Of a stretch of 64,000 bases of DNA, positions 1 through 30,439 are shown one piece after another (the stretch's first letter is position 1; each line of letters begins with the position of its first letter). Source of the DNA: a virus; IMG/VR virus record IMGVR_UViG_3300042731_007021, positions 1-64,000 of that record; one strand, 5' to 3'. The position numbers and the translations under genes are program-made. Below the pieces are notes generated by a model, which worked only from the letters and a program-made list of their open reading frames with translations, was not told where the DNA came from and made no database searches.

Positions 1-66
<66 letters not shown>

Positions 67-271
67 ACCATAGAAAAATCGCAGTCAATCCTCCACCTAC
101 CATTAGGATTCTTAGCCATCCACTAGTATATTTATAATAAAATTCAGTGTCGTTAACGAATGGCGTTGATGCTATAAAAAAGGCTTTTAATATTCTGTAT
201 AAAGTTTTCACCACTATCTCCAATTACTCATCGCCGGATGGAAATGCAACTGTCAACTCGGACGGCAGGCG

Positions 272-490
272 TTATATTTCGCGCAAAAATGTGCGCCACC
301 ATGCAAGTTGTTGTGATCCAGGACGCGAGTCCCATTCATTCCGTTTGTTCACAAACAACTGGTCTGGCGGAGCGTATGGTTTCATTGCGTTGGCGTGTCG
401 CCACGCTCGTCTGATGCGCAACAACAATTTAATAATAATATCAACGCAAAGCACCAGCAATGCGAGATATAGCAAATCGGTTAAGTTCAC
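272..490 (-). CDS. small membrane-anchored hypothetical protein (cassette-like gene)
   Basis: 72-aa ORF with N-terminal hydrophobic helix and GGGAG RBS; stop TAA lies within GTTATAT core site at 271-277. Confidence 0.7.
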   Translation of the reverse strand: MNLTDLLYLALLVLCVDIIIKLLLRIRRAWRHANAMKPYAPPDQLFVNKRNEWDSRPGSQQLAWWRTFLREI

Positions 491-510
491 TTCCGTCTCC
501 CTTTTGCATC

Positions 511-564
511 AAATAACAATTGCTTCAAGCGACGACTCAGCTCGTCTTACGCTGAGCGTTATGC
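511..564 (+). mobile_element. attC-like recombination site B
   Basis: AAATAAC AATT GCTTCAAG CGACGA-ctcagc-TCGT CTTACGC TGAGC GTTATGC; same layout as classic short attC sites (TAAC AATT..TTCAAG...CTTA..AGC GTTA) with an extrahelical C. Confidence 0.8.
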
Positions 565-795
565 CGGGCCAATTAATTTAGTGTGGCGCGGCGGTTGTTC
601 GGCAGAGTATAAAAAACCGTCCTCGCCAAGCATCAACCCACCAGCCCCTCGCTTTGTAAATTCGCCGTGCCATTTTCCTATTTCCGGGTCACACTCAGAG
701 CAAAGCAACGGCTCGTCGTTACATTTTTTCCACCAGTACCCACACAAGGCTGTATTCTCAACATCCCCGCATTTTTCACATTTGAAAAGTGGCAT
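559..795 (-). CDS. small Cys-rich (CxxC...CxxC) hypothetical protein, cassette gene; start MPLFKCEKC
   Basis: ATG lies within the R'' box of site C and the stop within the R' box of site B; the ORF-track extension to 855 is translated attC sequence. Confidence 0.7.
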   Translation of the reverse strand: MPLFKCEKCGDVENTALCGYWWKKCNDEPLLCSECDPEIGKWHGEFTKRGAGGLMLGEDGFLYSAEQPPRHTKLIGPA

Positions 796-876
796 AACAA
801 CATGCTCCAGTTGCGACGGCCTTGCCCAGGCCTGTCGGGTTAAAATGTGCGCCACGCCTGAGCATGGCCGTTATAT
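792..876 (+). mobile_element. attC-like recombination site C
   Basis: GCATAAC AAC ATGCTCCAG ... CTGAGCAT GGCC GTTATAT; ATGCTC(C)AG pairs with CTGAGCAT leaving one extra C. Confidence 0.8.
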
Positions 877-1071
877 TTCCTTAATGCTGTCCACAGTTAT
901 AGCCCAAGGCCACCCGCGTCTACTGCCTGTTTCACCGAGCACCTTTTTAACCTTCGTTATAGCACCAGCTTTCGTTTCTGCTTTTATAGTCAGTTTTTCA
1001 GCTTCATCCCATCGCGGAAAGTAATATCCGGTGGGGTCTTTCTCTGTTGCTCTGATCGCAAATTCAAACAC
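871..1071 (-). CDS. hypothetical protein, cassette gene
   Basis: 66-aa ORF with GGAGGTG RBS; exactly fills the space between sites C and D. Confidence 0.75.
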   Translation of the reverse strand: MFEFAIRATEKDPTGYYFPRWDEAEKLTIKAETKAGAITKVKKVLGETGSRRGWPWAITVDSIKEI

Positions 1072-1087
1072 TCACCACCTCCCAAAA

Positions 1088-1145
1088 ATATAACAATGAA
1101 ATGCAATAGGTTCGCTGCGCTCCCGACTGATTTTTTCCGTTATAT
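1088..1145 (+). mobile_element. attC-like recombination site D
   Basis: ATATAAC AATG AAATGCA ...TTCGCTGCGCTC... CTGATTT TTTCC GTTATAT. Confidence 0.7.
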
Positions 1146-1382
1146 TTCAAAATCAGATTTTCGAAACCCGGCTTCTCGGAAGCCTGTAAACACACTGATG
1201 CATTGCGGGCAAGTAATTTTTTGCCCAGGAGGTGCTTTGACAGTTCCAAACGTACCGACATGAATGTACGGGTCATTTGCATCCAAACCGCACAGTGTGT
1301 CGTAATCAGTTGGGAAACAATTTATTGCATGCCAAATGACGCCATCTGATTCTCTGACTCCTATAACTCTGCTCATCCCCAC
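1140..1382 (-). CDS. small putative Zn-binding hypothetical protein (H..TLCG..ITCPQC)
   Basis: 80-aa ORF; stop within R' of site D. Confidence 0.7.
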   Translation of the reverse strand: MGMSRVIGVRESDGVIWHAINCFPTDYDTLCGLDANDPYIHVGTFGTVKAPPGQKITCPQCISVFTGFREAGFRKSDFEI

Positions 1383-1576
1383 AACTCCTTAGCTTTTTTA
1401 AGCGCTTTAATAAAGTTGTCGATGTCTTCTATGGTGCATATTGGGCAGTCTTCTCCCTCTACACCGACAATACCGACAGCCTTACCACGACGGACAATTA
1501 AATCACCTGAATCATCAAATCTGATGCCCTCAACCTCTTCGTTTACTTCTTCTCTGATGTCTATGATCATTTTCAT
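1373..1576 (-). CDS. hypothetical protein
   Basis: 67-aa ORF with GGAG RBS, coupled to the next gene. Confidence 0.7.
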   Translation of the reverse strand: MKMIIDIREEVNEEVEGIRFDDSGDLIVRRGKAVGIVGVEGEDCPICTIEDIDNFIKALKKAKELWG

Positions 1577-1598
1577 AATGCTCCGTCAACCTTAATCG

Positions 1599-1802
1599 TT
1601 ATGTGCTTTCCGCTTGAACTTCGGCGCGGGTTTTCACCAACCGGATAACATTCCTGTCCTCATCAAATTCGACCCTATCACCAAAGGCGTATTGATCACT
1701 CAGAAGGTGATTGTTTATTTCGGCCTGGTTTTCTGGCAAGTCTGGATACCGGTAGGCCCAGAATGATTCTCCGGGTATTTTTAAACGTATATTTGGGTCC
1801 AC
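1599..1802 (-). CDS. hypothetical protein, cassette-like gene
   Basis: AGGAG RBS; flanked by GTTATGT (1598) and GCCTAAC (1819). Confidence 0.7.
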   Translation of the reverse strand: MDPNIRLKIPGESFWAYRYPDLPENQAEINNHLLSDQYAFGDRVEFDEDRNVIRLVKTRAEVQAEST

Positions 1803-1818
1803 AGTATTAATCTCCTGC

Positions 1819-1924
1819 GCCTAACACGGCACACATTGACGCATTTTTACCTGGTATGTCATTCTATATCTCGCTAGTTGGCACGTTCCGCTGCGCTCTA
1901 CGCCGCACAGTTTTGATGTTCAGC
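1819..1924 (+). mobile_element. degenerate attC-like site F
   Basis: GCCTAAC ... CCGCTGCGCTC ... GTTCAGC; arms pair poorly. Confidence 0.4.
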
Positions 1925-2162
1925 GTCCACGCTTCGCTTGATATGCGTAGCATCCGAACGGTTCTCCGAGTGCCTCACTCATAGCCTTGCAGGTCGAACA
2001 CGGGCGAGTTGATACCGTGTGCATGTCTACCGATAAGACCTTTATGGCCTCAATAAGGGACGCTGAACCAGCCATTGAAGAGGAATTGCTCTCGTTGGCG
2101 TTTCGTTTAAAAGTGCAAATCGGGTCACATTCTTCACCACATTCAGGGCTACATTTACTCAT
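1920..2162 (-). CDS. Cys-rich hypothetical protein
   Basis: 80-aa ORF with GAGG RBS. Confidence 0.6.
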   Translation of the reverse strand: MSKCSPECGEECDPICTFKRNANESNSSSMAGSASLIEAIKVLSVDMHTVSTRPCSTCKAMSEALGEPFGCYAYQAKRGR

Positions 2163-2195
2163 TCCGCAATCCTCTTAATAGTGAACGTTATAGGG

Positions 2196-2495
2196 CTAAT
2201 CGGCGTATCTGGTAATCGCCCTATGTAATTCTTCCAGCCCAATGTCGGGGTTGTCATCAAGTAGTCGTTTTCGCATTTTCAGCGCATTCCGGTTAATCAA
2301 TCCATGCTCATAAGCGTCAATCGGCATCGCAATTCCGCGCTCTGTTCGTCCACTGCATACTGCCTGATCATAAGCCTCGGTTTCTTCATGGTACTGTTTA
2401 GCCAGTTCATATAATCGGCGGTCTTTTTCGGTAGGAGTGAAGTCTCCATATAACAAGGCGCTAAACTCGGACTCGTCTCTCTTCGCTGCGCTCAT
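2196..2495 (-). CDS. hypothetical protein; likely start MSAAKRDE inside attC site H
   Basis: GGAGAGGAACA-ATG at 2495, in frame with the track ORF. Confidence 0.65.
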   Translation of the reverse strand: MSAAKRDESEFSALLYGDFTPTEKDRRLYELAKQYHEETEAYDQAVCSGRTERGIAMPIDAYEHGLINRNALKMRKRLLDDNPDIGLEELHRAITRYAD

Positions 2496-2526
2496 TGTTC
2501 CTCTCCGGTTATGCCAAGCGTTATAT
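2448..2526 (+). mobile_element. attC-like recombination site H
   Basis: ATATAAC AAGG CGCTAAAC TCGGA...CTTCGCTGCGCTC...TCCG GTTATGC CAAGC GTTATAT. Confidence 0.75.
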
Positions 2527-2533
2527 TTAAAAA

Positions 2534-2815
2534 TCACACCCCTGTTCCTAACACAGCGTCAAAGCCTTCGGTCACGGCAGCTTTTACAAGGTCGTGCCCC
2601 TGCCCGTATTTGAAATAATCAGCCACCTGCTTGGTTAATTCCGTATGCACGATTTCAGTCACTTTCCCTTGCCAGTCATAGGACTCTATCACCTTCTCAA
2701 TCTCGACCTTCAGGACCTCCCCCATCTCGCTATTATGTGCACCAAGATGCGTCAAAATGGTGGACTTCATTTGTTCAACTTCTAGCCGTATGAGCGGCAT
2801 CGCTTCATGATTCAT
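2534..2815 (-). CDS. hypothetical protein
   Basis: 93-aa ORF with AGGAG RBS. Confidence 0.7.
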   Translation of the reverse strand: MNHEAMPLIRLEVEQMKSTILTHLGAHNSEMGEVLKVEIEKVIESYDWQGKVTEIVHTELTKQVADYFKYGQGHDLVKAAVTEGFDAVLGTGV

Positions 2816-2846
2816 TGTATTAATCTCCTGCGCGTTAACTCAAGCG

Positions 2847-3167
2847 CTAGTCAGCCCTCGGTCTCAGTTCGACTTCTTCAAACATCGACGTTCTGGCGAG
2901 TAACATAGCAGCAAGGTTCGCGACGTCCACCCAGTCCTCCGACTCTACGTTTTTAATGAGCCGGGTTTTTAAATCTGAATTCTCACATTGCGGAGTATTC
3001 CACCCGTTATACCCGTTTTCACGCTTCTCTTTTAATCGTTCTCGCATCTTATGTTCCGCAAAATCTACAAGTAGGCTATCTGCAACCTTGGGGTGGACGC
3101 TCGTTACAAAAGCTACCAGCAAAATATCGTCTGCTTTCTTTTTTGCTAACTCCAGCCTTTCAATCAT
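2847..3167 (-). CDS. conserved-type phage helical protein (GYNGW...C...DWVDVANLAAML), possibly MazG-like fold
   Basis: motif recognition only. Confidence 0.5.
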   Translation of the reverse strand: MIERLELAKKKADDILLVAFVTSVHPKVADSLLVDFAEHKMRERLKEKRENGYNGWNTPQCENSDLKTRLIKNVESEDWVDVANLAAMLLARTSMFEEVELRPRAD

Positions 3168-3203
3168 GTTCCTATCTCCTATTAAAATGGCTAATATACC
3201 TAT

Positions 3204-3455
3204 TCAATTGGCACCTTTCGGCCTGCCTGGTTCCAGAACCTCACATCGAATCAGCTTTTCAGCGTCCAGGGTACTTGGGTCGAACGCCACCTTGACCGAA
3301 GAGGTGGCCTTGGCCCCTGCCCTTGCGGCATAACTGTTAATGCCTTGCATGGCTATCCCTACTTCACCAGCTGGCACCGGGTAGTAAACCACAGTGCCAG
3401 CCGGCATGCGCAAAAAGTCGCCGACTGGGGGGTAGAATTGTGAAAATTTTGGCAT
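3204..3455 (-). CDS. hypothetical protein
   Basis: 83-aa ORF with AGGA RBS. Confidence 0.6.
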   Translation of the reverse strand: MPKFSQFYPPVGDFLRMPAGTVVYYPVPAGEVGIAMQGINSYAARAGAKATSSVKVAFDPSTLDAEKLIRCEVLEPGRPKGAN

Positions 3456-3490
3456 TGGATTTCCTGGTTAATTTAGGTTAATTGAAAAAT

Positions 3491-3892
3491 TCACCGCACC
3501 AACTTCACCGTCACCCGGCGAGAACCAAAAGTCGTCTTGAATATCTTCTTCAGATCGATCGGGGATAGGTATTTGCGCAGATCGGTGATACTGAACTTGG
3601 CCAGTTTATAGGCCAGGCCTTTTTCAACATCCTCCAGCATTTGGGCGGCAGTCGTAGTATTTTTTACTACGTTGGATTCAGCCTTCTTTCCGATGTTGAT
3701 CTCACATCCAGGAGCGCTCAGATTCGCCGATTCAAGCCTACCCAGTCCGCCTTTCTCAACATGTTCGACAATCAATTTGACGGCGGCGTTATAATCGGCG
3801 GTGATATGTTCAAGCTCAGTTGAAACTTTGTCTTTGGCGCTTTTCAATTCTGCAATTTCGTTCATTGCTGCGGTGTAACTCTTTACGGACAT
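3491..3892 (-). CDS. hypothetical protein with N-terminal coiled coil
   Basis: 133-aa ORF with GGAG RBS, directly downstream of a sigma70 promoter. Confidence 0.75.
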   Translation of the reverse strand: MSVKSYTAAMNEIAELKSAKDKVSTELEHITADYNAAVKLIVEHVEKGGLGRLESANLSAPGCEINIGKKAESNVVKNTTTAAQMLEDVEKGLAYKLAKFSITDLRKYLSPIDLKKIFKTTFGSRRVTVKLVR

Positions 3893-3925
3893 CTTTTTGT
3901 CTCCGGTTTGTTTATCTGAAATTGC

Positions 3926-3959
3926 AGTATAAAGATTGATGTATTATTTGTCAACAAGT
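3926..3959 (-). promoter_or_regulatory. sigma70-type promoter ACTTG-TTGACA-N17-TATACT
   Basis: near-consensus -35/-10 upstream of 3892. Confidence 0.75.
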
Positions 3960-4501
3960 TTATTCTTTCTGCTTCTTTTCGATACATGGTAGATTTTCTT
4001 CATCACTGCATCAGACATCTTAACGATATACACTTGCCACACGTGCGCCATTATCGGCAGGGAGTCTGCAGTCAGGCTTTTATTGGATCGGCGTGGCAAT
4101 ATTTTGTCAGCCTCGGCCAGGATAGGAAACTTTGCTTCATCAGGCTCAACATCTGGGGAGGCTCTCAGGTATGACTTTAATTGACTGTCGGGTATTGGAG
4201 TCTGGGGGAAGTTCCCTATAGCATCCGAGGCCTCCAATGCCATGACTGGCAACACCCGCACTACGAAATCTGACTTATGACGTATGCCGCGGCGCTTCAG
4301 AGGCTCTTGTAACTTGCTGGGCCGGGATTTACTAAACACCAGAAAAGCCATCACATCGTCACGATGCAGATTATTGTAGTCGTCTACTAAGGCATTCCAG
4401 TCGATGTCGGTGTTGACGTATTCACCAAAATCCTTAACCTTCAAGGCCTCCAGAATGTCTGTATAAAGTGGATGCTGTTTGGTTATGAATTTGAGGTTCA
4501 T
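3944..4501 (-). CDS. hypothetical protein
   Basis: 185-aa ORF overlapping its neighbour by ATGA. Confidence 0.75.
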   Translation of the reverse strand: MNLKFITKQHPLYTDILEALKVKDFGEYVNTDIDWNALVDDYNNLHRDDVMAFLVFSKSRPSKLQEPLKRRGIRHKSDFVVRVLPVMALEASDAIGNFPQTPIPDSQLKSYLRASPDVEPDEAKFPILAEADKILPRRSNKSLTADSLPIMAHVWQVYIVKMSDAVMKKIYHVSKRSRKNKLVDK

Positions 4502-4761
4502 TTAGCCTCCGAGTTGGATTCATTTTTAACCGCCCTCTCGTATTCCGACAACAAGTGTTCAAGTAACGTTTCTCCGCATCTTGGGGAGAAGAAAATCCTA
4601 TGGTCTTGCGGCATTCCACTGACGGTGAGGTCTCTTAATTTTTCAGGGCGATAGCTTTTCATTTCACCAGACTCTGACATTACTTGAAGTGGAAAATTAA
4701 ATCTGCTGTCTACCTCAACATACTCTCCGGCCAATGGCCCGCCAACGCATAAAACTTTCAT
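4498..4761 (-). CDS. hypothetical phage protein (VGGPLAG motif)
   Basis: 87-aa ORF, translationally coupled. Confidence 0.7.
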   Translation of the reverse strand: MKVLCVGGPLAGEYVEVDSRFNFPLQVMSESGEMKSYRPEKLRDLTVSGMPQDHRIFFSPRCGETLLEHLLSEYERAVKNESNSEAK

Positions 4762-5849
4762 CTCAAACTCAACTCCTCTTCAATAAATTCTTCATAAATA
4801 GTCTTGAAGTCTTCGTCCGTCGTAGCATCCGTGACCCTTGGGGACAAGTACAATATCTGCTCAGGAGTGAACCCTTTATACAACAGTTGGTCGGCGCGTT
4901 CAATTGGCATGATGGCCAGATTGTCTATCTCACACTCAAGATGCCACTGCTGCAAGGTTTTCATGACCACTGAGTTTTCAAATATATCGAATACTGGGAG
5001 GATCCACTCCGATATAAGTGATCCCCACTGGCGCAAAGACACCGACCGCATTTCCAACGGGGTGTTGGGCGCAAAGGGCGTACAGTCTTCTTCTGAATCT
5101 TCAGGTATGCTTTCAGACGACTTCTCTATGAACACCTTTTCTGAAAACCTTTGCAACTCCGGGATGGCGGCATCATTATATCCGTGCTTCAATAAATCGT
5201 TGGAGGTTATTTTCACTTTTTCAGACATAAAGGTGCCAGTCTGCTCTATTCTTACTATGCCCTCATCCTTGGGCTCTTCTCCCAGGTTTTTTCCGTTGTA
5301 TTCGGTGACGTTGTGATACCCAAAGTGGATAAATCTCCCCCTGACCGGTAGGTAAAGCAATTGAATTGTATCGGCATTGAACTGGAAGCTAGTCAGCATA
5401 CTAAGGCTTATCCGTTCTGAAACAAAGTCGACGCTATATTTCCTATGACCTATGTTATCAGTAGGAAGTGATTCCGCTATGGCGTCCTGACCAATGTCCA
5501 GATAATTGTGGTCATCACTAAAGTCCCTGTAATTAGGATCAACTTTAGACAACTTTGGCACAATAACATAATCCATTTTGTCCAGGTTCTGGTATTTCAT
5601 AGACAAAAACGGTGCCCCTGGACGAGGGGAGACCAGCCCCCTTGGCTGTTTGATATTATCATACAGGTCGGATGTGAATCTGCCATATCCAGGTTCCATA
5701 CCTTTAAGTTGCTGTCTCTCTATCATCTCGTACAAATCATCACCTATAACAACTATAGAAAGGTCTACCCAGTTTGGGTCGCATCGATGCGGATACTGCG
5801 TTATTAAGTTACGCCATTGCTTGTATAGAAGTTCAGAGTGTAGTTTCAT
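4758..5849 (-). CDS. hypothetical protein
   Basis: 363-aa ORF. Confidence 0.8.
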   Translation of the reverse strand: MKLHSELLYKQWRNLITQYPHRCDPNWVDLSIVVIGDDLYEMIERQQLKGMEPGYGRFTSDLYDNIKQPRGLVSPRPGAPFLSMKYQNLDKMDYVIVPKLSKVDPNYRDFSDDHNYLDIGQDAIAESLPTDNIGHRKYSVDFVSERISLSMLTSFQFNADTIQLLYLPVRGRFIHFGYHNVTEYNGKNLGEEPKDEGIVRIEQTGTFMSEKVKITSNDLLKHGYNDAAIPELQRFSEKVFIEKSSESIPEDSEEDCTPFAPNTPLEMRSVSLRQWGSLISEWILPVFDIFENSVVMKTLQQWHLECEIDNLAIMPIERADQLLYKGFTPEQILYLSPRVTDATTDEDFKTIYEEFIEEELSLR

Positions 5850-10549: not shown

Positions 10550-10624
10550 TGGTAGCGAGAAAGGGAATCGAACCCCCGTCTTCCGGGCTATGGACCCGGT
10601 GCTCTACCACTAAGCTATCTCGCA
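10550..10624 (-). tRNA. tRNA-Met(CAT), initiator (fMet) type, CCA encoded
   Basis: TGCGAGA TA GCTT AGTGGTA GAGC A CCGGG TCCATAG CCCGG AAGAC GGGGG TTCGATT CCCTT TCTCGCT A CCA; 1:72 mismatch and three G-C pairs at the base of the anticodon stem. Confidence 0.93.
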
Positions 10625-11885: not shown

Positions 11886-12221
11886 TTATCTAGCATTAAA
11901 GTCCGGTTTTTCCGGCCACACAAAAGGCATAATCCAATAATAATCTTGATCCGGCTCACCATCCATCCAAAACTCTATCACAGTGCCTTCCTCGCTGAAT
12001 AAAATATCGCCATCAAAATGTAAAATTTCAACTTCACTGGCTTTGGGGCTAGATATGTAATACATGCCGCCTTTAGTTAGGCTGTAATTTTTTGTCAACC
12101 TTGCCCATCCGCCATGCTGCGATAACAAGTCACTGTTGCAGGAACTCACTACGCTATCCATTAACCGCTCTATCTCGCCTTCGGCTATAGTTTCGTGGTC
12201 TTCCATTTTTACTTTAATCAT
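11886..12221 (-). CDS. hypothetical protein; stop within a GTTATCT core site
   Basis: 111-aa ORF with GAGGA RBS. Confidence 0.7.
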   Translation of the reverse strand: MIKVKMEDHETIAEGEIERLMDSVVSSCNSDLLSQHGGWARLTKNYSLTKGGMYYISSPKASEVEILHFDGDILFSEEGTVIEFWMDGEPDQDYYWIMPFVWPEKPDFNAR

Positions 12222-12388
12222 TCGCTAGTCCTCAAAGTTCAATCGTTGTATTGCTTAGCTGCTGCTGCTGGCAATAACGAGCCATCCATCTGAGGTCTTG
12301 CGACTCAGACGCTAGTAGTGGCCAGGTTGGCGTTCAAACCAAAACCCGAGGAATTTAATGCTTTGTTCTGCACCCATCAGTGCCTCCG

Positions 12389-12688
12389 TTATGCCGCAAG
12401 CCCGCGAGCGCGAAGCTCGAACCATATCGAGTGCATCGCCTGTACGGCTTCTGCGGATAGCTTGATCCTGGTCTCATGTCCGCTGTTCACAAAAATAAAG
12501 GCAAACGAATCGTCATCGGCGGGGAAAACCGAAATGCTGCGGCCTCCAGATAGTTCGCATTTAATGCCTTTGATTGGCTCATCAGGCATAGCAAGCGCAT
12601 CAACAGAGGAAGCGCTGTCGCTTTGCAATCCACAAGTACATTCAGTTTGAGTACATTGGGTTAAATCTCTTTGTTCACATTCTTTCAT
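12389..12688 (-). CDS. hypothetical protein; N-terminus overlaps a degenerate attC-like site
   Basis: stop within GTTATGC (12388); GGCATAGC AAGC GCATCAACAG at about 12585 is read as ...VDALAMP. Confidence 0.6.
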   Translation of the reverse strand: MKECEQRDLTQCTQTECTCGLQSDSASSVDALAMPDEPIKGIKCELSGGRSISVFPADDDSFAFIFVNSGHETRIKLSAEAVQAMHSIWFELRARGLAA

Positions 12689-12761: not shown

Positions 12762-13064
12762 TTACGCTGCTTCGTGCAGTTTCTGCTTCAGAGCGTAGCC
12801 CTCCAAGGCCCAGATTTTTTCTCTGGCATTGTTCCTGGCAATCTTGCGCCCCAGCTCGGCGTTGAAGTTCTCAGGGCTTGCGCAGGCGCTTTCTCCAGTC
12901 ACAGTGAAACCGTTCGCCAAGGTCAGGCAGCACACGGTAAGCTGACTGCCGGGGAATACGTGATAGTCCTCGCCAGCAATCACCTCATCCAGTCGCTCAG
13001 GAGTAACACGCGGCGCAGTCAGTCCTTTGTCCTGAATCTCTTTTTCAATTTCTTGCTCACTCAT
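12762..13064 (-). CDS. Gp49 family protein (N4 gp49 / Sf6 gp66), cassette gene
   Basis: APRVT...LTVCCLTLANGFTVTGESACASPENFNAELGRKIA...KIWALEGY. Confidence 0.9.
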   Translation of the reverse strand: MSEQEIEKEIQDKGLTAPRVTPERLDEVIAGEDYHVFPGSQLTVCCLTLANGFTVTGESACASPENFNAELGRKIARNNAREKIWALEGYALKQKLHEAA

Positions 13065-13080: not shown

Positions 13081-13167
13081 GGCTAACAGTAAATTCCACG
13101 GGACGTGGGATAGTCCGCGCTTCGCATCTGGCCGCATTCAGCGCGCCCGTGAATAAAAGTGTTAGTT
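13081..13167 (+). mobile_element. attC-like recombination site J
   Basis: GGCTAAC AGTA AATTC(C)ACGGG ... CCCGTGAAT AAAAGT GTTAGTT; extrahelical C. Confidence 0.82.
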
Positions 13168-13410
13168 TTCTTCAATCCATGCGGCACAAGTTTCTTCACC
13201 TTGCGGTACTTCTGTATACCCTAAATCCGCATGGCAGTAAGTTCCTTCACGCTGTATCAATTCTCTGAACTTCTTGTCACTCACCCCAAGCACAATAATT
13301 GTACATCTCGGGTCAGTAATACCAAGACCAATTACAGCATGAGCAATCTGTGCGGCCACTTTGCCCTCAGTCATTTTTAAGTTTTTTCTGTAAATCGCTT
13401 TTATTCTCAT
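13162..13410 (-). CDS. peptidyl-tRNA hydrolase PTH2-type protein (short), cassette gene
   Basis: LKMTEGKVAAQIAHA, IIVL, DLGYTEVPQGEETC motifs. Confidence 0.85.
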   Translation of the reverse strand: MRIKAIYRKNLKMTEGKVAAQIAHAVIGLGITDPRCTIIVLGVSDKKFRELIQREGTYCHADLGYTEVPQGEETCAAWIEEN

Positions 13411-13424
13411 AAATCACCATCAAA

Positions 13425-13484
13425 AATTAACAACGCCATTAAATCCGACTAGCTATCGCTCTCAGTTTATGGCGAGCGTTATAG
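13425..13484 (+). mobile_element. attC-like recombination site K
   Basis: AATTAAC AAC GCCAT(T)AAA ... TTTATGGC GAGC GTTATAG. Confidence 0.8.
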
Positions 13485-13688
13485 CGTATTCTGCTCTTTC
13501 AACTTTTGCAGATCAGCCATCAATTCCTCATTGTTCGCAATGCACTCAGCAGTGAAGCGGTAACGTGTCCAGTGCATAGGTGCATCGTCATCAATAATCT
13601 GGCACAGCACCCAGGCGATGCGGTCTGTCGTGTTCGCGGTTTCTTTGTTAAAAGGTTCAAACATTTCGATATCCTCAAAGTGCGCCAT
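13479..13688 (-). CDS. hypothetical protein, cassette gene; start MAHFEDIE
   Basis: ATG within R'' of site L, stop within R' of site K. Confidence 0.7.
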   Translation of the reverse strand: MAHFEDIEMFEPFNKETANTTDRIAWVLCQIIDDDAPMHWTRYRFTAECIANNEELMADLQKLKEQNTL

Positions 13689-13747
13689 AATACGGCGCTG
13701 TGGAGGGGAGCGCAAAAGACGCGCTCCCCTAAGCTAAAACGTTAATG
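13685..13747 (+). mobile_element. attC-like recombination site L (R'' reads TAAT instead of TAAC)
   Basis: CCATAAT ACGG CGCT GTGG AGGGGAGCGC aaaagac GCGCTCCCCT AAGC TAAAAC GTTAATG. Confidence 0.65.
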
Positions 13748-14083
13748 CCACCAGAGAAAAATCTCGGTATCTGGTGGCAACGCCTTCATGTATTCCATAA
13801 CGGCCCTGTTTTTCGGGCTGAGTTTATACTTAGCCATTGCATCAGCAATAAGTTTTGCGCGTGTCGAAGTAAGCCGGTCGCCATAATTATCTTTGTCGGT
13901 ATCTTCCAGCCCTTCATCGTCGTACCAATGCAGCTTACGGCCCTGTCTAAATTCAACGACACCGCAGTTTCTTATTGAATCCTGCATGTCATAGTCACGG
14001 TCTGTCAGCAGTCTCTCGTAAGCGAGTGGCAGGTTATCGTCTTTTACGAACGCATTAACCACTAAAGTTAAACTTACTCCCAT
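13742..14083 (-). CDS. hypothetical phage protein (D.YGD.LT...NRAVMEYMKALP...LWWH), cassette gene
   Basis: 113-aa ORF with GGAGGTG RBS; stop within R' of site L. Confidence 0.75.
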   Translation of the reverse strand: MGVSLTLVVNAFVKDDNLPLAYERLLTDRDYDMQDSIRNCGVVEFRQGRKLHWYDDEGLEDTDKDNYGDRLTSTRAKLIADAMAKYKLSPKNRAVMEYMKALPPDTEIFLWWH

Positions 14084-24902: not shown

Positions 24903-25097
24903 TTAATTTCCTCTGTGTGCAATACGCTCAATAGAACGCTCACATTGTTCTATTAGCTGCTGTTTATTACGCCTAGACATTTGCCGGACCTTAAACGAAT
25001 CCTTCCTTGCCGGGTGTGGCAGGTTTAAAAAGTCTTGCACAATTACCTGCGCTAATTCGGTTTTTGTCCAATTGTTTAAATCACCTAAATTTCTCAT
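24903..25097 (-). CDS. hypothetical early protein
   Basis: 64-aa ORF. Confidence 0.6.
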   Translation of the reverse strand: MRNLGDLNNWTKTELAQVIVQDFLNLPHPARKDSFKVRQMSRRNKQQLIEQCERSIERIAHRGN

Positions 25098-29374: not shown

Positions 29375-30439
29375 ATGAACCCAAAACAAATCTACGAAAA
29401 CTTACTTAAAAACCAGCAAATCATGAAACCTGTCAACCCAGATGATAAAAAGTTATTTGGCTCTGACACGGATATCAACCAGCTTGCCCCGTTTAAATAC
29501 CCGGCAGCTTACGAATTTTTCAAAAATGGGGTCAGTAACAACTGGACCCCTGAGGAAGTTCCAATGGGTCCTGATCTATACGATTACAGACACAAGCTGA
29601 ACGACGCCGAAAAGCATGTATACGAAAATGTGCTGTCCTATCTCACTACTTCGGATATTATGGTTGGGCGCAACATCGCTACGGCCCTTTTTGATAAATT
29701 ACCGGTACCTGAGATTCAGCTTTACCTTGGCAGACAGGTTTTCGAAGAAGGGCTACACAGCCACTCTTATCAATTTTGCATTGAAGGCTTAGGGCTGGAT
29801 CAGGGGGAAATATATAATCGCTATCGGACGGTTCCGGAGATTTATCAAAAGCTGATACTGGCCCAACAATATACAGACTCGTTGACAGCTGATGATTTCG
29901 ACATGCAGGATCCAGAATATCAGAGGAGGTTCGTCAAGGCTTTGGTATTCTACGGTATCGGATTCGAAGGTGTCTGGTTTTATAACGGGTTCACCCCAGT
30001 GTTTTCCCTACAACGGCGCGGGCTTATGAAGGCGACCGGGGAGCAGTTTCAATACATCCTGCGGGATGAAGCAAACCACGCCACTTTTTATCAGTGGCTG
30101 ATTCAGATGATCCGGAAGGAGTACCCGCATATCTGGATTCCAGGATTCGATGAGGAGTTGCGCGTCGTCCTTCGTCAAGTCGTAGAGGCTGAAAAGCTGT
30201 ATATAGGATACATACTGAAGAGTCCGATATTGGCGTATTCCCCTCGGCAGCATATCGACCAGGCAAAGTTTATGGTTAACTTACGGGCTCAGCGGATTGG
30301 GCTCGGCATCGTATACCCTGAAATTACCAGACCGGCGACACCGTGGCTTGATGAGCAAGCGTTTATCAAAAAGGAGAAGAACTTTTTTGAATCAAGGGTG
30401 AATGAATACCAGAACGCTGGAAGGTTAAATTGGGATTGA
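29375..30439 (+). CDS. nrdB: ribonucleotide reductase class Ia beta subunit
   Basis: W.PEEV, D ligand (LTTSD), EEGLHSHSY with radical Tyr, EGVWFYNGF, RDEANH, NFFE.RV.EY. Confidence 0.95.
   Translation: MNPKQIYENLLKNQQIMKPVNPDDKKLFGSDTDINQLAPFKYPAAYEFFKNGVSNNWTPEEVPMGPDLYDYRHKLNDAEKHVYENVLSYLTTSDIMVGRNIATALFDKLPVPEIQLYLGRQVFEEGLHSHSYQFCIEGLGLDQGEIYNRYRTVPEIYQKLILAQQYTDSLTADDFDMQDPEYQRRFVKALVFYGIGFEGVWFYNGFTPVFSLQRRGLMKATGEQFQYILRDEANHATFYQWLIQMIRKEYPHIWIPGFDEELRVVLRQVVEAEKLYIGYILKSPILAYSPRQHIDQAKFMVNLRAQRIGLGIVYPEITRPATPWLDEQAFIKKEKNFFESRVNEYQNAGRLNWD

Follow-up and report, generated by a model that had tools for sequence, protein, structure and literature searches.

Clusters of attC sites lacking integron integrases (CALINs) are already known in phages: the main text of Qi et al. 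2023 (PMC9892861) reports 17 of them and describes IntI1 recombining the attC sites of phages PH101, TJE1, and P12002L, where the predicted bottom strands outperform the top strands. In the clustering described in a passage of PMC4889954, IntegronFinder calls a CALIN from attC sites that lie under 4 kb apart on one strand with no integrase gene (intI) nearby. Passages of PMC5027507 and PMC13108822 say that bottom-strand selectivity lands cassettes correctly oriented behind the promoter Pc, and the latter passage adds that a bottom strand on the lagging-strand template raises excision in Vibrio cholerae. Here, we analyze 64,000 nucleotides (nt) of the IMG/VR virus record IMGVR_UViG_3300042731_007021 (positions 1 to 64,000; hereafter, the window), which carry two arrays of attC sites between small genes. 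The attC top strand is the + strand at all seven sites, and the genes between the sites lie on the - strand.

Array 1 (270-2850) consists of imperfect palindromes of the form xxxTAAC...GTTAxxx between small - strand genes, and array 2 is a further attC group. The sites are listed here with bit scores from two covariance models, R1 and R2 (described below), and z scores from folding as single-stranded DNA (ssDNA).

511-564, + strand: attC B (array 1); R'' AAATAAC, spacer AATTG, L'' CTT[C]AAG, R' GTTATGC; R2 20.0 bits, R1 16.4 bits; fold z -1.2
792-876, + strand: attC C (array 1); R2 22.1 bits; fold z -3.9, with 0 of 200 shuffles as stable
1088-1145, + strand: attC D (array 1); perfect 9-bp R box pair, weak inner stem; R2 15.3 bits, E 0.23
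2448-2526, + strand: attC H (array 1); R1 26.5 bits, R2 25.4 bits; weak hairpin, poor fit in the arm alignment
13081-13167, + strand: attC J (array 2); R2 20.6 bits; fold z -1.35
13425-13484, + strand: attC K (array 2); R2 28.9 bits, E 5e-5; fold z -3.1
13685-13747, + strand: attC L (array 2); degenerate R'' (CCATAAT); R2 14.8 bits; fold z -3.9

R' reads GTTA in all seven sites and R'' reads TAAC in six (TAAT in L), and the extended box CGTTATRYNY occurs nine times where 2.8 are expected, a count reached in 0 of 100 shuffles. By the IntegronFinder definition, the locus is a CALIN: four co-oriented sites fall within 2.0 kb and three within 0.7 kb, all on the + strand. It is not a complete integron, since the window lacks intI; no search was made for attI. 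Searches with IntIA, IntI1, and IntI2 (tblastn) found no integron integrase in the 64-kb window (best E 0.25), and Pfam found no recombinase among 10 large open reading frames (ORFs) of the window. Like the published phage CALINs (PMC9892861), the window has attC sites between small ORFs and no intI, and R2 also recovers the TJE1 and PH101 clusters. The window differs in having at least seven sites in two arrays, compared with two to four per phage in the main text of that report.

We judged polarity against arrays with annotated orientation: the chromosomal integron of Vibrio anguillarum (on phage Va_90-11-286_p16; locus L001), in which intIA is on the - strand and 15 of 18 array coding sequences (CDS) are on the + strand, and the class 1 and class 2 integrons of four plasmids (L002-L005), in which every annotated cassette gene is divergent from intI. 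The two arms of each site were aligned from their R box anchors. The AAC-carrying arm held the extra bases in 16 of 17 bacterial attC top strands, the remaining one (Va5) showing none; sites of the aadA1 and aac(6')-Ib type have a left spacer of 5 nt, a right spacer of 6 nt, and an extra base past a 3-bp stem. The + strand of B, C, D, J, K, and L follows the same pattern, with spacers of 5 and 6 nt (4 and 5 nt in K) and one to three extra left-arm bases after a 3-bp stem. When the - strand of attC K is folded, its bulges sit on the arm opposite AAC. A passage of Nivina et al. 2016 (PMC5027507) describes inverted extrahelical-base mutants as carrying these bases opposite AAC in the top strand; by implication, a wild-type top strand carries them on its AAC arm and the bottom strand on the other arm.

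The covariance models, trained on bacterial top strands only, gave the same polarity. R1 was trained on the top strands of 14 V. anguillarum sites, whose R and L pairs were set by hand, and R2 was rebuilt from 24 canonical matches that included no window sequence; a MAFFT alignment of long and short attCs was not used for the models, as it misplaced 3' arms. Matches were listed at E<=10. In the four class 1/2 plasmid loci, all seven R1 matches with E<0.01 fell on the cassette-gene strand, at the coordinates read by eye; R1 missed the attCs of blaOXA-1 and of one function-unknown cassette. On the window, R1 gave nine matches, seven of which are the seven sites, all on the + strand (9.1-26.5 bits). 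R2 likewise placed all seven on the + strand (14.8-28.9 bits; five with E<0.02, two with E 0.23-0.33), and nine of its 10 matches were on that strand, the sole - strand match being a 23-nt palindrome (24931-24953). Neither model gave a - strand match at any of the seven sites at E<=10. For scale, the reverse strands of two true TJE1 sites score 11-12 bits with R2, versus 30-31 bits for the sites themselves. The crossover points agree: with the + strand as top, attC H would be cut at 2520|2521 (G|TT), leaving gene g8 intact, and with the - strand as top, at 2453|2454, inside g8. Since the models put every site on the + strand, the recombinogenic bottom strand is the mRNA-like strand. The earlier note on this DNA had proposed both points, reading the + strand as a canonical top strand with the extra base in its left arm, and had named a - strand outcome of the covariance model as refuting; the outcome was + for seven of seven sites.

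The genes of the two arrays are as follows.

272-490, - strand: g1, 72 amino acids (aa), hydrophobic N-terminus; no family match; codon score no better than other frames, so coding is doubtful
559-795, - strand: g2, 78-aa Cys-rich protein; phrog_11861 (1.2e-9), 55 homologues; stop TAA in R' of B
871-1071, - strand: g3, 66 aa; stop TAA in R' of C; codon score +0.135
1140-1382, - strand: g4, phrog_15583; stop in R' of D
1373-1576, - strand: g5, ORF
1599-1802, - strand: g6; stop in the lone box 1598-1604; no attC among g4, g5, and g6
1920-2162, - strand: g7; stop TGA
2196-2496, - strand: g8, phrog_27964; stop TAG
2534-2815, - strand: g9, ORF
2847-3167, - strand: g10, phrog_8298; TAG stop in the degenerate box GCTAGTC (2846-2852)
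12389-12688, - strand: h2, array 2 gene
12762-13064, - strand: h3, Pfam Phage_gp49_66 (E 1.2e-32)
13162-13410, - strand: h4, 82 aa; first 28 residues match peptidyl-tRNA hydrolase PTH2 (partial, 5e-7)
13479-13715, - strand: h5, array 2 gene
13742-14083, - strand: h6, array 2 gene

Coding on the - strand, which the earlier note had claimed for all of array 1, is borne out by family matches and codon usage, with g1 doubtful. PHROG or Pfam matches were found for g2, g4, g8, g10, h3, h4, and the further - strand gene h7 (PHROGs), and for neither of the + strand ORFs at 147-581 and 581-1024. With codon frequencies learned from 14 long window ORFs, 14 of 15 - strand ORFs scored best in their own frame (11 of them positive; g1 is the exception), and no + strand ORF exceeded +0.002 bits per codon; codon usage is atypical in g2, g4, and g7. 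To judge from the PHROG families and one gene in common with Alteromonas phage ZP6, the cargo is phage-type. That gene is g6, which has 73% DNA identity on the same strand to an annotated ZP6 gene (L006 2468-2686). The ZP6 copy overlaps the start of a helicase gene with no attC nearby; being outside a cassette, it indicates that the g6-type gene occurs both inside and outside cassettes.

Gene boundaries coincide with the boxes in part. The boxes outside the seven sites are the following.

271-277, + strand: lone R'-type box GTTATAT; read on the - strand, its TTA gives g1 its TAA stop; the sequence left of the box showed no hairpin
1598-1604, + strand: lone box GTTATGT, holding the g6 stop
1819-1825, + strand: GCCTAAC box, adjoining a 17-nt leader (1804-1820); no R' partner was found
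2187-2193, + strand: lone box GTTATAG, between g7 and g8
2834-2852, + strand: relic GTTAACTCAAGCGCTAGTC, resembling an attC 3' end and containing the degenerate box GCTAGTC

The claim that every stop codon comes from the R' box holds for half of array 1: the TAA of g1, g2, g3, g4, and g6 falls within the GTTA of such a box, the stops of g5, g7, g8, and g9 do not, and g10 uses the TAG in its degenerate box. In array 2, all five genes (h2-h6) have their TAA within a GTTA box. A start codon supplied by R'', said to occur sometimes, was found once only, in g2 (ATG 795-793, in R'' of C). The ribosome-binding site, start codon (2496-2494), and first 16 codons of g8 lie within attC H.

The ends of the cassettes also match each other. 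In a genuine cassette, R'' and the R' at the opposite end match because the circular form had joined them. At four junctions, R'' matches its far-end R' at 8, 9, 8, and 7 of 10 positions, compared with 6, 9, 5, and 5 within the same sites; the corresponding far-end matches are 8-10 of 10 in V. anguillarum, 9-10 in PH101, and 9-10 in another viral contig from IMG/VR (L015). This complementarity argues for integrase-type recombination, and it cannot orient the sites.

Antisense arrays recur in other phages. In the published CALIN of Pseudoalteromonas phage PH101, R2 places four attCs on the + strand (36-41 bits), and the annotated genes gp132-136 are on the - strand; the PH101 scan excluded its last 31.9 kb, and record MW202573 was also outside the model scan. 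PH101 further contains an ORF of 82 aa that is missing from the annotation; it is encoded on the attC strand, sits between two attCs, and overlaps gp135 (L009 27466-27714, + strand), so that one PH101 cassette may be sense-oriented. In the published CALIN of Tetrasphaera phage TJE1, R2 finds three attCs on the gene strand, the canonical layout. P12002L gave weak R2 matches only, the best on the + strand at 30005-30059 (13.9 bits). Among IMG/VR loci with g2 homologues, three of 80 (two distinct contig types) have attC matches, all antisense to the g2 homologue; with default filters, 0 of 35 metagenome loci with g2 homologues have one. L015 is a regular array with eight antisense attCs and a single ORF per interval, each ending in a TAAC box, and its gene strand shows the 6-nt left spacer and the bulged G in the right arm of a canonical bottom strand. 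L030 and L031 have two antisense attCs each. The g2 gene is flanked by GTTATGCC and GCATAAC in the window, L015, and L030. Past the g2 homologue of L030 (~4229-4245), GCATAAC and GTTAGGC stand just 3 bases apart, which looks like an attC without its hairpin, akin to the lone boxes of the window. No IntI was found in the four phage records, among them the complete PH101 genome and one of 50.5 kb that has terminal repeats.

The six loci with g2 homologues in bacterial genomes include no canonical cassette holding the homologue. They gave one attC-like match, antisense, in a Geobacter bin (19 bits, E 0.02). It lies just downstream of the g2 homologue (L127 4342-4428), and two integron integrases are found elsewhere in the bin (L132, L133). 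The earlier note had raised a distinct reverse-oriented cassette class. That idea gains support from the antisense arrays of PH101, L015, L030, and L031 beside sense-oriented bacterial controls, with TJE1 showing that phage arrays can also be sense-oriented; its suggestion of looking for the array genes in bacterial integrons was followed for g2, with the outcome just given.

Further repeats accompany the sites. A 17-nt stretch, GTATTAATCTCCTGCGC, occurs twice in identical form (1804-1820 and 2817-2833), each copy adjoining a TAAC-type box; read on the - strand, it supplies g6 and g9 with the ribosome-binding site and spacer ahead of their starts, and the two copies look like a shared cassette leader. 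The loop motif TTCGCTGCGCTC / TCGCTACGCTC is found in several window attC loops (1108-1125, 2478-2495, and ~1885-1900) and in the PH101 attCs, and may mark a common attC type or host group. The 167-nt intergenic gap 12222-12388 has a CAATAAC start and a GTTATGC end (12272-12394); its arms pair poorly and it has no model match, and it may be an eroded long attC. Two weak + strand R2 matches (2062-2193 and 12120-12251) overlap coding sequence and were treated as lone R' boxes, not sites.

Classical arrays (class 1/2, Vibrio) have much in common with the window: R''/L''/L'/R' anatomy, extra bases in the AAC arm, sites that all point the same way, and cassette ends that are complementary; in both, most cassettes hold a single promoterless ORF, and stops often fall inside a TAAC box. 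They differ in gene strand, with the genes on the top strand (the 15 of 18 CDS in V. anguillarum and all annotated resistance cassettes of the four plasmids) compared with 0 of about 15 in the window, which also lacks intI and carries phage-type cargo. Reverse-oriented cassettes, such as toxin-antitoxin cassettes, occur in chromosomal integrons and are thought to carry their own promoters. Their ORF is antisense to its attC, as in the window, and toxin-antitoxin cassette orientation is mentioned in a figure legend of PMC13108822. Such cassettes are a minority in sense arrays (three of 18 CDS in the V. anguillarum integron, one a transposase), whereas the window array is wholly antisense and, unlike these cassettes with their presumed own promoters, is probably read from an outside promoter. 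T4-type phages have promoter-plus-stem-loop shuffling units, which resemble the window in their repeated intergenic hairpins among small early genes of a variable region. Unlike the window, these units recombine by homologous recombination between repeats and have neither RYYYAAC/GTTRRRY boxes nor cassette-end complementarity. As for the mirrored gene orientation, we found no description in the literature searched. The main text of Qi et al. 2023 (PMC9892861) describes the PH101 layout as typical and does not contain the words "antisense," "opposite," or "reverse"; its figures and supplements, outside that search, may show the orientation.

Altogether, we favor the reading, with a probability of roughly 0.72, that the region is a CALIN inside a phage genome that splits small promoterless early genes into cassettes, with the genes on the recombinogenic bottom strand. 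The attCs have normal anatomy with their top strand on +, and the genes are on the - strand, so that each hairpin stands in front of its gene rather than behind it. The cassettes would be moved by a host-supplied integron integrase acting in trans, and the gene row may be transcribed from a phage promoter upstream of array 1.

3954-3926, - strand: strong sigma-70-type promoter match TTGACA-17-TATACT (11/12), upstream of the gene row entering array 1

Three RNA libraries from two studies yield contigs over the array, with depth peaking over 2088-4075 and two contigs bridging attC H. The mirrored layout would put the bottom strand on the non-template strand of early transcripts. The cumulative GC skew has its minimum near 20 kb; should the replication origin lie there, the bottom strand would also be the lagging-strand template. 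Insertion of cassettes at G|TTA would account for the TAA stops in R', since a TAA stop with a C after it has G|TTA as its complement.

Several observations weigh against this reading, and some of them favor one of three alternatives. The integrase search covered 64 kb of the contig on which the g2 protein is recorded, which has 81,161 bases; its remaining ~17 kb could hold an integrase. The contigs from RNA libraries carry no strand information and may include DNA, and the direction of replication is taken from GC skew only. R1 and R2 are our own models; they were trained on 14 and 24 sites, which come from a small number of sources, and they give rough E-values. The state of the arrays is a further point. 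In ssDNA folding, D and H are not more stable than shuffles and B and J (z about -1.3) only modestly so, and several boxes are lone or degenerate, which indicates that part of the array is eroded. A second DNA run contains the stretch with 0 differences and no joints. This gives no sign of ongoing shuffling, but contigs hide rare variants and so do not bear on mobility.

These last observations would suit relic arrays, that is, real attCs of past captures that are no longer recombined and whose mirrored orientation is functionless, left by selection for expression. The folding of D and H, the lone boxes at 271, 1598, and 2187, the relic at 2834-2852, the identity of the two DNA runs, and the lack of an integrase in the window all fit this alternative. 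We nevertheless consider it unlikely, as the cassette ends are still complementary at 7-9 of 10 positions, C, K, and L fold into strong hairpins (z -3.1 to -3.9), and the g2 gene keeps its end boxes across three different arrays. Uniform antisense polarity across unrelated phages would also be hard to reach by decay alone.

A second alternative takes the - strand as the functional top strand, with ordinary cassettes and models misled by sequence drift. The gene strand does have the canonical look, since each ORF ends in RYYYAAC and, after a hairpin, GTTRRRY precedes the next start, as in a textbook array; purine skew (GC/AT skew) and strand stability are ambiguous, failing to orient the sites reliably and failing on Vibrio controls as well. 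We hold this alternative to be very improbable given that, at E<=10, every one of the seven sites is matched on + and none is matched on -, that the 5/6-nt spacers, bulged arm, and TAACAA...GCGTTA flanks fit canonical top strands, that the same model places TJE1 and the bacterial controls on the gene strand, and that a - strand crossover would cut g8. Least credible of all is that these are not integron sites but phage-own intergenic elements (terminators, RNA-processing hairpins, or promoter-hairpin shuffling units) converging on attC: their location between co-transcribed genes, the ribosome-binding sites and start codons that some hold (H), the missing integrase, and the repeated 17-nt leader would fit, but a bacterial-only attC model locates them to their precise ends, at E as low as 5e-5, their extra bases and unpaired spacers are at canonical positions, their complementarity joins the two ends of a cassette rather than the arms within a site, terminator-like and promoter-like counts in 60-4000 are at chance (3 vs 3.9 and 6 vs 5.7 expected), and similar PH101 sites are recombined by IntI1 according to the main text of PMC9892861.

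The window as a whole is phage-like, with small - strand genes at ~0.2-25 kb and structural genes on the + strand at 26-62 kb. Its large terminase has just 37% identity to Vibrio phage counterparts. No close DNA relative was found among phages, nor by a 36-nt exact word among viral contigs, and the anchor protein (4758-5849) has no relative among viral contigs; a DNA search of attC B against plasmids gave matches at chance level only. The public runs containing the stretch are wetland metagenomes and metatranscriptomes. The window opens with 64 A's (1-64), and an independent DNA run yields a contig that breaks off close to this point as well; the A-run could be a genome end or an assembly artefact. 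One tRNA gene lies between the two arrays.

10553-10624, - strand: tRNA gene (Rfam 60.6 bits)

More tentatively, we suggest that phages might keep their own pool of mirror-image cassettes, with attC before the gene, exchanged between phages by host integrases. If so, the bottom strand would be exposed, being the non-template strand and probably also the template of lagging-strand synthesis, making phage arrays recombination-hot during infection. Phage cassettes would then be silent in bacterial integrons and bacterial cassettes silent in phage arrays, which would amount to an expression barrier. All-reversed arrays in unrelated phages misfit the usual rationale of bottom-strand selectivity and point to a second, phage-side use of the sites. 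The finding is relevant to the exchange of small accessory genes, possibly for counter-defence, among phages and to the origin of cassettes, since at least half of the ORFs stop precisely where the crossover takes place.

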